64,000 bases of DNA from Escherichia phage Barry. Shown here piece after piece: positions 57,640 through 59,480 of this stretch (positions are counted from its first letter, which is position 1; each line of letters opens with the position of its first letter). Location: the sequence record LR880803; one strand, written 5' to 3'. The notes beneath the pieces were generated by a model, which saw only the letters and a program-made list of their open reading frames with translations, was not told the origin of the DNA and did not search any database. A program made the position numbers and the translations under genes.

Positions 57640-57717
57640 AATGACCTCAAAGTTATATTAAATTTTGTATTACATTGAGTATAAAAATAAGCTATAACAC
57701 CTGACTTGTCAACAGAT

Positions 57718-57850
57718 TTTATAGCTTATTTGGCAGATTTTTTATAAGGCTACTGCCATCCTTCCATACCTTACCTTACCACACCTAACCATACCTAACC
57801 AAACTACACCATACAATACCTTGTTAAAAGACCCTCTTAAAGACCTTTTA
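57718..57850 (-). repeat. GT-rich degenerate repeat tract on the transcribed strand (GGTAWGG units), copy 1
   Basis: + strand CCATACCTTACCTTACCACACCTAACCATACCTAACC; ~75% identical to 58976..59125. Confidence 0.6.
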
Positions 57851-57875
57851 AAAAGGAGCCTCCGAAGAGGCTGCC
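57851..57875 (-). terminator. rho-independent terminator (- strand)
   Basis: AGCCTC-CGAA-GAGGCT with T-run on - strand (+ strand CCTTTTAAAAAGG). Confidence 0.5.
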
Positions 57876-57883
57876 TAGTCAAC

Positions 57884-58324
57884 TTAGAAAGGTTTTCTAC
57901 GTTGCTTGTTAATGTTAGCTTTCATAGCAGCTAAATGGTTTTGCTGTTCAATTAGTCGTGAACGTTCTTGATGGCTAAGTGCCATAGTGTTCACATTCTC
58001 AATTGCTTGAGTGGCTTGCTTTAAAGCTCGACCAATCTTACCAGACATTTTACGTTTTGCAATAGTTGCTTGATGCTTAGGTTCAACCACACGATAACCA
58101 ACACCCATTGAAGCAACCAGATAAATCTTCTCTTCTTTAAGAAGCTTCTCAATAAACTTCTCAAGTCGGTTTAGACGTGTAAGCGCATAAGCCTTCATTT
58201 CATCTTCGTACTTAACAATGTCACCTTGATAAGTTGGCTTCACAATACCTAAGAAGGTGTCCATCTCAGAATGTGATACAGTGTCACCGTAACTAAACTT
58301 TGCTGCTAATGCTTTCGTATTCAT
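57884..58324 (-). CDS. hypothetical protein
   Basis: 146-aa ORF. Confidence 0.45.
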   Translation of the reverse strand: MNTKALAAKFSYGDTVSHSEMDTFLGIVKPTYQGDIVKYEDEMKAYALTRLNRLEKFIEKLLKEEKIYLVASMGVGYRVVEPKHQATIAKRKMSGKIGRALKQATQAIENVNTMALSHQERSRLIEQQNHLAAMKANINKQRRKPF

Positions 58325-58326
58325 AA

Positions 58327-58929
58327 TTAAACGTTACCTTCTGAAATAACTTCTACAGAAAAACGACCAAAGCGTGGACGCCAATCACCTACACCACAAA
58401 GGTTACCAGCATTTTCAAGAACCATCAGAAGTTCCTCTTTGGTGATTTGCTCTTCATCGAACATCAAACCGAACTCTACAGACCAGTCACGGAAGATTGG
58501 ACGGTAGCTCATAACTCGTGCTGTACCAATCTTAACAGACTTAGCATAGATGAAGTCTGGATTCTTAGCAAGTTCTTGTGGGTTTGCTGGGCAGTTCTTG
58601 ATAGTCATTGGGAAGACTACATCTGTCAGCATAATGGCTCGGTCAATTACCTTACCAAGTTTATTGAGTTTTGCACCAGACTTGATACAAGCCTCAATCA
58701 TCTCACCGTTCATAACAAAACCTAGTTGGTCATCGTAGTAGCAAGAAGTTACCAGTTGACTTTCTGCTAAGAGCGCATAGTCTTCGTCAGTCTTTTTACG
58801 TTTACTGGACAGAGACTTGTGATATTTTGTCAGAGGGTTTAATGGGTCTGACAGAGTATCTGCATGGCTCAGGAAAGGACGAGTACCAGTGATTTTGATA
58901 TTTAACAGTTTCATAGCATTTAGCTCCAC
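58327..58929 (-). CDS. hypothetical protein
   Basis: 200-aa ORF, coupled to downstream gene. Confidence 0.45.
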
Positions 58930-58975
58930 ACTTTAGTTGATTGTTAAGTTGTTTGTAAAGAACCCTCAACAGAAG

Positions 58976-59125
58976 ACTCTTTAGAAACTTGGTAGATTTT
59001 TAACGTGGCTACTACCATCCACCCATACCTCACATCACCATACCATACCTGACCGGACCTAACCAAACTCCACAGCACCATACATCACATCACACAACCT
59101 TATTAAAAGACCCTGTTTAAAGACC
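58976..59125 (-). repeat. GT-rich degenerate repeat tract, copy 2
   Basis: shares the GGCTACT.CCATCC ... AAAGACCTTTTAAAAAGG frame with copy 1. Confidence 0.6.
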
Positions 59126-59159
59126 TTTTAAAAAGGTAAGTCTCATTTTAATGTAGCTG

Positions 59160-59235
59160 AGACTAACTACCCATACCAAACAGCACCGCACTATGCCTTA
59201 CCCCACCTCACCGAGCCTCGCCCCACATCACTTAA
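59160..59235 (-). repeat. third C/A-rich (+ strand) tract with GGGG runs on - strand
   Basis: CCCATACCAAACAGCACCGCACTATGCCTTACCCCACCTCACCGAGCCTCGCCCCACATCAC. Confidence 0.4.
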
Positions 59236-59480
59236 AAAACCCTTTTCAAAGACTCTTAAGTGATGTTGGTGAGTACCCGTTGGTTTATGCTGCTCAGTAT
59301 ACTCACCAAATTTTCTATGTCAACAACTTTTTATAAAAAAGTTCTGATAGCTATATGTGTCACGAAACAAAAGATTGTAAACAAGACACCTATTGCAAAA
59401 GATGTGTCCAAAAGCTTACTTGCAACGTATGACAATACAAAGACAACCAGTATAAACAGAATGACTGTACTGAACATAGT

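Follow-up and report, generated by a model that had tools for sequence, protein, structure and literature searches.

The VIPR (Viral Interference Programmable Repeat) system is already known, having been first described in 2026 in two papers, both of them preprints (bioRxiv 10.64898/2026.04.26.720920, 10.64898/2026.04.26.720927). It represents a newly described mode in which RNA reads double-stranded DNA, by means of dinucleotides set in a 5-nt repeat, with every third base of the target being skipped. In SUSP1, Vipr protomers coat the vrRNA and hold each GGY, the NN dinucleotides read dsDNA, and the target is silenced. sRNA-seq, co-purification/pull-down, GFP silencing, phage defence (plaque) assays and cryo-EM were all carried out for the SUSP1 system, and its vap1 was found to enhance protection. 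The vrRNA genes of type II VIPR consist of 9–16 tandem YNNGG repeats, with GGY conserved and NN hypervariable. The authors, who found their loci via the protein, analysed 41 vrRNAs. Vipr itself has a minimal RAMP fold with a G-loop and a thumb, being kin to the Cas RAMPs at fold level only, and the system was proposed by the authors to predate CRISPR (bioRxiv 10.64898/2026.04.26.720920, 10.64898/2026.04.26.720927).

The window, i.e., the whole 64-kb stretch of DNA that we analysed, comes from a Felixounavirus with 99.8% identity to phage Tribble. We conclude, with a probability of about 0.93, that the region 57722-59323 of this window is a type II VIPR system comprising three vrRNA genes, vipr and vap1. 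The GT-rich repeats of the locus are guide RNA genes, and the genes in between encode the Vipr protein and a helper. This main reading was missed by the original prediction; it may be noted that reading of the raw sequence alone was sufficient to flag such a system. All the components lie on the - strand, with units C and B upstream of vipr-vap1 and unit A downstream (Table 1). They are situated between the ligase gene and g127, a 127-aa gene at 57256-57639.

Table 1. Features of the locus, in the direction of transcription, and predicted targets in the satellite phage (window positions unless a satellite copy is named)
Feature	Position	Strand	Description
Promoter-like site P1	59296..59323	-	TTGACA-16-TATACT, 11/12; upstream of units C, B and vipr
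Unit C 5' flank (head, type 1)	59231..59269	-	11-14 bp hairpin CCAACATCACTTAA...TTAAGTGATGTGG; inverted repeat
vrRNA C guide region	59171..59230	-	12 YNNGG pentamers
vrRNA C 3' tail	59139..59170	-	H-type pseudoknot, GTAG/CTAC interleaved with AGTCTCA/TGAGACT, then T-run
Unit B 5' flank (head, type 2)	59103..59136	-	contains the 20-mer common to unit A
vrRNA B guide region	59023..59102	-	16 YNNGG pentamers
vrRNA B 3' tail	58991..59022	-	GGTAG...CTACC stem
vipr	58327..58914	-	195-aa protein, described as RAMP-like, filament-forming on vrRNA
vap1 (vipr-accessory protein)	57884..58324	-	146 aa; starts 3 nt past vipr end
Intrinsic terminator after vap1	57850..57874	-	GCAGCCTC-TTCG-GAGGCTCC, then T5; consensus match spans 57872-57857
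Unit A 5' flank (head, type 2)	57824..57856	-	carries the 20-mer common to unit B
vrRNA A guide region	57764..57823	-	12 YNNGG pentamers
vrRNA A 3' tail	57722..57763	-	GGCAG/CTGCC stem interleaved with TAGC(C)TTAT/ATAAGCTA; read from sequence
Promoter-like site P2, for next gene	57684..57712	-	TTGACA-17-TATTTT, within 19-nt inverted repeat 57685-57731
Predicted target A	L157 10470-10505		GAAAATGCTAGTATTGTATATATAAGTTAACAGAAT
Predicted target B	L159 17874-17921	-	AGGCTGTGAGGAGATAGCTGGTTATTATCCTGCAATTATAGATGAAAC

Genes, signals and repeat units

Two ORFs, 57884-58324 and 58327-58929, are bracketed by the repeats, as had been reported. PHROGs, Pfam and NCBIfam gave a function for neither of them, and identification came from a PDB sequence search, in which the 195-aa product of the second ORF was identical to SUSP1 Vipr at 191 of 195 residues (chain 36pp_D, E 2e-128). 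It is because of this match to PDB 36pp that the locus is assigned to type II VIPR. Translation of this ORF likely starts from the ATG at 58914, which corresponds to the start of the solved SUSP1 protein. Thirteen of the 14 contact residues named in the structure paper are present (H17, K33, R39, E71, M72, K82, G87, K88, R138, C173, D177, W178 and R179); at the 14th, position 175, V is found in the window Vipr and also in the 36pp chain.

The gene vap1 was found directly downstream of vipr in all the 25 gene-bearing loci, at 98-100% identity. No match to its product was obtained in Pfam, NCBIfam or PDB, and the best BLAST match given by the Tribble annotators is a SUSP1 protein. A putative DNA-binding fold was predicted for Vap1.

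The promoter-like site P1 is conserved in all Felixounavirus loci inspected and, going by its sequence, would act as a promoter. P2 adjoins the VIPR system and is not counted as a proven component. The hairpins after the repeats had been taken for - strand terminators. For the one at 57872-57857, a consensus intrinsic terminator, this interpretation held, but the hairpin beside copy B turned out to be the pseudoknotted 3' tail of unit C.

The two direct repeats, put by the original prediction at ~150 bp and ~75% identity, were confirmed: 57730-57856 and 58989-59136 are 74.3% identical over 148 columns (E = 3e-21). The third G-rich tract, placed at 59160..59235, is real as well, since 59146-59260 constitute a homologous third unit that is 68.4% identical to unit B over 117 columns (E 2e-10) and 70% identical to unit A over 67 columns. 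The window contains exactly two copies of the 20-mer TTAAAGACCTTTTAAAAAGG, one at 57837 and the other at 59117 (0.03 expected from shuffles). The - strand core of each unit consists of 12 to 16 Y-N-N-G-G pentamers in phase, and the - strand string GGTTAGGTATGGTTAGG... is one instance of this strict 5-nt period. Out of 10 successive pentamers, 8, 7 and 5 had ACC in register at the respective sites; a count of 5 was reached nowhere else in the 64 kb, and the shuffles gave at most 4. No further YNNGG array was present elsewhere in the window. The + strand of the arrays contains a 67-nt stretch without any G, a strong strand asymmetry. The NN code of guide A reads AA AT AT GT TT TA AT TA GT AA AA AT, and that of guide C reads GA GG GA TC GA GG AA AT GC GC TT AT, with two of the guide C pentamers, CATAG and TGCTG, being off the GG consensus.

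The same construction was found in relatives. The 74 genuine unique arrays collected from 34 related loci were all in-phase YNNGG runs of 10-20 units, their head-to-tail length being a multiple of 5 in 71 cases, and across them GG and Y are conserved and NN varies freely. A blind DNA-pattern scan of IMG/VR yielded 120 loci. A Vipr-family ORF lay alongside, mostly on the same strand, in 41 of the 65 loci with heterogeneous NN, and in none of the 55 plain-microsatellite loci. In GenBank records the repeats of the locus are labelled only as repeat_region or DR_4; the genome papers of Felix O1 and UAB_Phi87 list other repeats, with no mention of these.

Each array is followed by a structured tail. 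Among 14 distinct sequences of the unit C-type tail, both helices of the pseudoknot were paired in 100% of cells, and three pairs of helix 2 showed compensatory, two-sided change. When the pseudoknot was slid by 1-3 columns as a control, only 24-34% of cells were paired. The GGTAG/CTACC stem of unit B covaries with GGCAG/CTGCC of unit A. A second pseudoknot helix was looked for in the unit B tail and was not found, only the first stem being evident; this tail may extend further towards vipr. The unit A tail is likely a pseudoknot of the same topology as that of unit C, its second helix having been judged by eye. A permissive Rfam scan of 56500-60500 returned chance-level matches only. The type 1 head opens the first unit in every relative and may serve for processing or belong to a promoter.

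Predicted targets in a satellite phage

The NN dinucleotides were compared with DNA read as xNNxNNxNN, i.e., with a 1-nt skip, and a match was called at >=80% of NN positions. The guides came from the 34 related Felixounavirus loci and were gathered independently of the published set of 41 vrRNAs. With the 1-nt skip, 41 of the 74 guides matched nine satellite-bearing E. coli loci. Control skips of 0, 2 and 3 nt gave 0, 0 and 3 matching guides, respectively, and none of the 74 matched after the NN order had been shuffled. The skip-one code, and the satellite phage as the target, are thereby confirmed independently and by purely computational means.

The satellite in question is an E. coli phage integrated in a DUF72-family gene; strains KBN10P04869 and MS20645 are examples of carriers. 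Its baseplate gene is 91-93% identical in DNA to 44156-44713 of the window, and satellite copy L159 encodes WP_096972663/4, the proteins that the paper names for its own satellite. From their NN matches, guides A and B are predicted to be aimed at this E. coli satellite phage, which shares its baseplate gene with the phage studied here.

Guide A matched satellite copy L157 at 22/24 positions and three other copies at 19-20/24, with shuffled controls reaching at most 19. Its predicted target overlaps the spacer and the -10 element of a TTGACA-type promoter of the satellite main operon and continues downstream. For guide B the predicted target is an integrase-type serine recombinase gene of the satellite (26/32). 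At the homologous site 24-26/32 positions were matched in all eight full satellite copies tested, the 80% threshold being reached in one copy only (26/32; 24-25/32 in the others). The skipped bases of the guide B match fall on codon position 3 (wobble). Neither in the window nor in 1.7 Mb of other DNA was guide A or guide B matched equally well. Self-targeting within the 64-kb window was at background level (best 17/24, 20/32 and 17/24). Guide C matched the nine satellite-bearing loci at no more than 17/24, which is background; an exact-pattern scan of viral contigs gave 0 matches for it, and its exact core was present, among 185,579 species genomes, only in two unrelated environmental MAGs, about the chance expectation. 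A promoter and an integrase-type recombinase gene are added here as concrete predicted targets for guides A and B.

The mechanism has been shown for the near-identical SUSP1 system, and for the present phage we infer it by analogy: production of the three vrRNAs, their binding by Vipr, and silencing are carried over from SUSP1 on the strength of 98% protein identity and a shared RNA anatomy. Each unit would give rise to an RNA of about 100 nt, consisting of 12-16 YNNGG pentamers and capped by the structured 3' tail. One Vipr protomer would bind per pentamer, forming a helical filament in which each GGY is buried and the two N bases are displayed. The displayed dinucleotides would pair with double-stranded DNA in the pattern xNNxNNxNN, one base being skipped per pentamer, and transcription would be blocked at the bound site. 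Guide A would then cover the main promoter of the satellite and guide B would sit in its recombinase gene, so that the VIPR of the phage would probably silence a parasitic satellite phage. Protein-binding arrays had also been proposed for the repeats. Binding by protein stands, but in SUSP1 it is GGY triplets of RNA that are bound by Vipr, not DNA upstream of promoters.

Relatives lacking the genes and alternative readings

A comparison of relatives, which the original prediction had called for, did reveal the empty site. Both genes are missing from Felix O1, EC6, UAB_Phi87 and others, in which one or two units occupy this same site. Relatives that carry repeats and lack the module always have the repeats at this one locus, rather than at many unlinked ones, and the refuting condition set by the original prediction leaves the functional reading standing. 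In UAB_Phi87, the one genome checked throughout, vipr and vap1 occur nowhere and the units are retained. The single-unit survivors are chimeras, their 5' part being like the first array and their 3' part like the last array of gene-bearing relatives. Such chimeric units point to deletion between units rather than insertion; with the units arranged as direct repeats, a recombination event joining two of them would remove vipr and vap1 and produce the arrangement found in Felix O1 and in several relatives. The proposal that the repeats are recombination substrates therefore stands as a secondary property, with deletion between units, not insertion of the module, being indicated.

Half of the orphan guides still match the satellite phage, one of them perfectly (24/24), and for this reason they may still work. 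That vrRNA genes persist after their effector has been lost, and that the arrays themselves cause that loss, is a tentative proposal which we consider rather doubtful. If it is true, orphans could rely on the Vipr of a co-infecting phage, or act as decoys that titrate the Vipr of a rival, and array recombination would be a regular route of vipr loss and regain. Neither 'orphan' nor 'recombination' appears as a word in the main text of the discovery preprint, and the retention by vipr-less phages of orphan guides that still match the satellite may be new. What is added here, within the same tentative proposal, is evidence of guide genes causing effector-gene loss and then persisting as orphans in the typing phage Felix O1 and its relatives.

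Recombination would be the sole effect of the units if they were fast-evolving intergenic pentanucleotide minisatellites, acting merely as homologous stretches through which the two-gene module is moved or deleted. The module is present in some relatives and absent from others, whose empty site keeps one or two units; this and the chimeric arrays of single-unit phages agree with such a reading, and array lengths in steps of 5 nt are as expected of replication slippage. Slippage should homogenise the units, however, yet GG and Y are constant and NN is free. Moreover, the NN strings match satellite DNA only with the 1-nt skip (41/74 vs 0 shuffled), and the same kind of array occurs beside Vipr homologues in unrelated viral contigs. 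Very improbable on these grounds, the minisatellite reading is already contradicted by the target matches.

It is extremely improbable that the units are a replication origin or a signal for transcription pausing/termination, their G-rich transcribed-strand tracts forming G-quadruplexes or stable R-loops. Such a role would suit the strand asymmetry, with its 67-nt G-free + strand stretch, and the location of the units among replication genes and downstream of strong promoter-like sites; GG doublets 3 nt apart could in principle stack as two-tetrad quadruplexes. The G4Hunter scores of 0.72, 0.62 and 1.03 are low, however, the usual cut-off being ~1.2. C is frequent at N positions in relatives, so that G/C skew is not the conserved feature. 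The units are also missing from the sister phages L014, L016 and L024, which have the same replication genes, and the target matches would be left unexplained. The description of the repeats as G-quadruplex-prone and telomere-like is not supported: the scores are 0.62-1.03, what is conserved is GGY plus two free bases, not G-runs, and the units are non-uniform.

The optimal site for TRAP is GAG with 2-nt spacers, and triplets at a 5-nt period resemble it. The arrays might be leader-RNA sites for a ring-shaped TRAP-like regulator, or, being C-rich and G-poor on the + strand, Rho loading sites for antisense transcripts, in either case controlling termination of the operon, as the hairpins and T-runs after the arrays would fit. 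We give this hardly any credence: no TRAP-family Pfam match was obtained among the six neighbouring proteins scanned, one array sits past the operon terminator, the hairpin belongs to a covarying pseudoknot, and the published structure has Vipr, not a ring protein, on the GGY triplets. Neither idea predicts the match of the NN bases to foreign DNA.

Such matching by free NN bases is likewise left unexplained by replication origin/R-loop, Rho loading or RNA polymerase pause arrays, by a CsrA or ribosome sponge, by type III toxin-antitoxin RNA repeats and by primase site arrays; genome termini or a packaging site, which leave it unexplained as well, were rejected since the locus lies near 58 kb of the 87.6 kb UAB_Phi87 record, far from the record ends (which may not be physical ends), and a DNA-binding motif common to the unit heads and the 14-15.7 kb non-coding region since TGTTARV is concentrated in the latter and not at the locus.

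Comparison with known systems

The VIPR locus described here is a near-identical copy of the studied SUSP1 system and therefore brings no new principle. Vipr is 98% identical, vap1 comes straight after vipr, the YNNGG guide runs are capped by a pseudoknotted tail, and the predicted targets are in the same satellite family, whose tape-measure (WP_096972664) and baseplate (WP_096972663) proteins are named in the paper. The host phages belong to the same subfamily, Ounavirinae, the present one being a Felixounavirus close to Tribble. The two loci differ in layout, as two units lie upstream and one downstream here, whereas SUSP1 has one upstream and three downstream. They differ further in the guides, the NN codes of A, B and C having been derived in this analysis and no target having been found for guide C.

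The ORF list and neighbour annotations showed neither a CRISPR repeat-spacer array nor cas1/cas2-like adaptation genes at the locus. Repeat scans gave only the three composite units, and none of the six neighbouring proteins scanned had a Cas family match. According to the preprints, VIPR resembles Class 1 CRISPR-Cas, with its Cas7 filament on crRNA, in that a RAMP-fold protein polymerises on a guide RNA. Both systems have a thumb domain that flips out bases at a regular spacing and a guide whose variable part is joined to a conserved handle, and both defend against mobile elements. Unlike the one continuous spacer of CRISPR, the guide information of VIPR is split into dinucleotides within 5-nt repeats; reading of the target skips one base in three and, per the preprints, needs no PAM. 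Here, moreover, VIPR is borne by a lytic phage.

The TRAP/trp leader RNA of Bacillus is alike in that about a dozen copies of a conserved triplet are spaced by two free bases each, one subunit being bound per triplet. TRAP, a closed ring of 11 subunits, exerts control over an attenuator, and no information resides in the spacers, whereas Vipr forms an open helical filament in which the spacers are the guide.

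Repeat units and their anatomy

Region 57600–59400 shares 99.8% identity with Escherichia phage vB_Eco_Tribble and 97% with the genomes of other Felixounavirus members. The neighbouring genes, all on the - strand, code for thymidylate synthase, dihydrofolate reductase, an HTH regulator, DNA ligase and DNA polymerase. In related GenBank records the repeats are labelled 'repeat_region' or 'DR_4' and nothing more, and the genome papers of Felix O1 and UAB_Phi87 do not discuss them. The original prediction had described two GT-rich direct repeats around a module of two unknown genes, here named vipr and vap1, and a third G-rich tract. 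The similarity of the first two was borne out, and the third tract turned out to be a homologous unit. Exactly two copies of the 20-mer TTAAAGACCTTTTAAAAAGG are present in the window, against 0.03 expected. The cores of the three units are pentamer runs with ACC in register (GGT on the - strand), seen at only these three places in the 64 kb; shuffled sequences always gave counts below those observed. The telomere-like GGTWAGG string of that prediction is present, but as one case of this stricter pattern.

Features of the vipr locus and of the compared regions (window coordinates unless a locus is named)
Feature	Coordinates	Strand	Remark
Unit A	57730-57856	-	74.3% aligned identity to unit B, 148 columns, E 3e-21
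Unit B	58989-59136	-	pairs with unit A in the 148-column alignment
Unit C	59146-59260	-	third tract; third homologous unit
Consensus terminator	57872-57857	-	3' of the 146-aa gene (vap1)
P1	59323-59296	-	predicted strong promoter-like site
P2	57712-57684	-	predicted strong promoter-like site
g127	57256-57639	-	127-aa gene, boundary of the unit-bearing interval
265-aa gene	44135-44932		part (44156-44713) matches the satellite 'phage baseplate protein' gene
Orphan units, UAB_Phi87 (NC_027360.1)	L164+L165 58100-58450
Orphan units, Felix O1	L004 1941-2222

When 34 related loci were compared (29 from IMG/VR, retrieved via the ligase gene, and five from GenBank), zero to five units were found per phage, and solely between the ligase gene, or an adjoining 48-aa ORF, and g127. 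After two false positives in coding DNA had been removed from the 76 candidate arrays extracted, all 74 genuine arrays were Y-N-N-G-G runs of 10–20 pentamers. The distance from the conserved 5' head to the 3' tail was a multiple of 5 in 71 of them, and the middle NN took all sixteen values across arrays. Thus, GG and Y are fixed, NN varies freely and arrays grow or shrink by multiples of 5 nt, which points to a binder touching one triplet per 5 nt and probably acting on a single strand. In the 14 distinct tails of the unit C type, both helices of an H-type pseudoknot were 100% paired, with three pairs altered on both sides; when the pseudoknot was slid by 1–3 columns, only 24–34% of cells were paired.

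The 48-aa ORF, which is hydrophobic, lies at 59331–59477 between the ligase gene and P1; it is present in some relatives and missing in others, independently of vipr. At 57685–57731, a 19-nt inverted repeat (89% complementary) surrounds the -35 box of P2. One of its arms, AAATAAGCTATAA, doubles as the proposed second strand of the pseudoknot in the tail of vrRNA A, so the two pairings would compete. The inverted repeat may mark the 3' end of vrRNA A or serve as an operator of P2.

Identification of the locus as a VIPR system

The 195-aa protein between units A and B had no match in Pfam or NCBIfam, and none with a function in PHROG. A PDB sequence search, however, returned the 'SUSP1 Vipr protein' (36pp; E 2e-128), which agrees with it at 191 of 195 residues. 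Thirteen of the 14 contact residues of the structure paper were found in the window protein, and the remaining one is V in both this protein and the 36pp chain.

VIPR systems are described in two preprints (bioRxiv 10.64898/2026.04.26.720920 and 10.64898/2026.04.26.720927). Besides a Vipr protein, a relative of the CRISPR RAMPs, such a system includes vrRNAs and an accessory gene, vap. Every vrRNA consists of 9–16 YNNGG repeats and a conserved 3' tail, which forms a pseudoknot within the SUSP1 clade. Cells infected with SUSP1 make four vrRNAs, each roughly 100 nt long, that co-purify with Vipr. By cryo-EM, one protomer occupies each repeat, burying the GGY and displaying the NN bases; these pair with DNA, one base being skipped per dinucleotide, and target binding silences transcription. 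Natural targets of the SUSP1 clade lie mostly in a satellite phage of E. coli genomes, and the discovery preprint also mentions satellite-borne vrRNAs. We infer that vrRNAs are expressed, and silence their targets, in Barry as well.

Predicted targets in a satellite phage

Matches to the unit tails in E. coli chromosomes led to a satellite of about 12–15 kb, inserted in a DUF72-family gene which we take to be yecE. The satellite contains tape-measure, baseplate and serine-recombinase genes. Of 5426 complete E. coli genomes, 525 carry a member of its family; among the copies, L159 codes for the proteins that the VIPR paper names for its satellite. The NN codes of the 74 guides were scanned against nine satellite loci. 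At a skip of 1 nt, a match of ≥ 80% was reached by 41 guides, compared with 0, 0 and 3 guides for skips of 0, 2 and 3 nt and none after shuffling of the NN order.

Guide A matched 22 of 24 positions at a TTGACA-type promoter before the main satellite operon, spanning the spacer, the -10 and the sequence just downstream; three other satellite copies gave 19–20 of 24, with shuffled controls at 19 or below. Guide B matched one site in the recombinase gene, common to all eight full satellites (24–26 of 32), its skipped bases falling on codon position 3. Neither guide had an equal match in the window or in 1.7 Mb of other DNA. For guide C, no target was found in the satellites, IMG/VR or one genome per prokaryotic species.

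Other readings of the arrays were also considered. A replication origin, Rho sites, pause arrays and TRAP-like attenuation, each considered in view of the anatomy, all leave the match of the NN strings to foreign DNA unexplained, and in the published structure the triplets are held by Vipr. The G-quadruplex-prone elements of the original prediction were rejected, as G4Hunter scores were only 0.62–1.03 and, in relatives, the N positions often hold C. Genome ends were dismissed: in the UAB_Phi87 record (87.6 kb) the site is found at about 58 kb, well away from either end, although this record may not start at a physical end.

The baseplate gene of the satellite is 91–93% identical in DNA to window 44156–44713, a level well above that of other satellite sequence; for the beginning of the tape-measure gene (window 41866–42041), identity is 73–83%. 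The baseplate identity makes Barry a likely helper of the satellite, and these similarities suggest recent gene exchange between the two.

The E. coli satellites carry a vrRNA-like unit of their own (L155 14990–15100; L156 14001–14069; L158 9002–9055; L159 8294–8361), made of YNNGG pentamers and a tail with a GTCG/CGAC stem. No vipr-like gene is annotated among the satellite loci inspected. This type of tail occurs in 153 of the 5426 E. coli genomes.

Two further window regions were noted. Between + and - strand gene blocks, 14030–15700 (1.6 kb without an ORF of at least 60 aa) is dense in short repeats based on YTGTTARRA with a spacing of 11–12 bp; 23 TGTTARV motifs lie on the + strand within 14–16 kb. 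This stretch may serve as an origin, in packaging, or as an array of regulator-binding sites. By eye, similar TGTTAA motifs are present in a non-coding part of the E. coli satellite (L155 13600–16100). At 10290–10544, a 127-bp unit is perfectly duplicated in tandem (100% identity, 2.0 copies), overlapping sequence that resembles a direct repeat of 57 bp described for Felix O1 in its genome paper; the duplication could be real or an assembly effect.

Loss of vipr, orphan guides and known systems

Comparison of relatives for presence or absence of the module, as the original prediction proposed, did reveal a module-less site: Felix O1, EC6, UAB_Phi87 and others are without vipr and vap1, but carry one or two units there. 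Two-unit survivors have first and last units that hardly differ from their counterparts in gene-bearing phages; one last unit has 57 nt in common with window array A. Where a single unit survives, it is a chimera. The array of L010 matches the first array of its relative L023 over 18 nt and the last over 22 nt, and EC6 shows the same pattern against wV8. Both are as predicted by deletion through direct-repeat recombination; the units thus serve as recombination substrates, and what recombination brings about is loss. Insertion, which had also been proposed, may account for the original gain of the module.

The whole genome of UAB_Phi87 holds no vipr or vap1 homologue. Nevertheless, five of the ten unique guides of vipr-less phages matched the satellite at ≥ 80%, and one UAB_Phi87 guide matched 24 of 24 positions (L158 12929–12964). 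The orphan guides could be recent relics, users of Vipr in trans, or decoys. In the discovery preprint, loci were found through the protein; the words 'orphan' and 'recombination' are both absent from its main text.

The locus is a genuine VIPR system of a kind already known, since such systems were described in 2026 and the window Vipr is 98% identical to that of SUSP1. Possibly new are the targets predicted for guides A and B, guide C without a target, the deletion route through recombination between units, and the orphan guides of vipr-less phages.

An exact IMG/VR scan for (GGTNN)7GGT gave at least 120 loci, about half of them plain microsatellites (55) and 65 heterogeneous. Among the matches listed, the heterogeneous arrays are grouped in tandem, on contigs that have no relation to Felix O1; at two loci, the gene just upstream has a terminal motif resembling the C-terminus of the window's 195-aa protein. 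With a profile built from homologues of this protein, a Vipr-family ORF was found beside the array, mostly on the same strand, at 41 of the 65 heterogeneous loci and at none of the 55 microsatellites listed. The other 24 had no such ORF in the stretch scanned; they may be shortened loci, loci with proteins too divergent for the profile, or further orphan arrays. Four unrelated contigs (L144 2600–12930, L093 3230–4400, L040 and L143) hold much larger sets, with 10–17 arrays back to back and short linkers such as GGCAGTT or GGCTAATGG. Their longest single runs, of up to 72 pentamers, exceed the 9–16 repeats of the VIPR systems studied.
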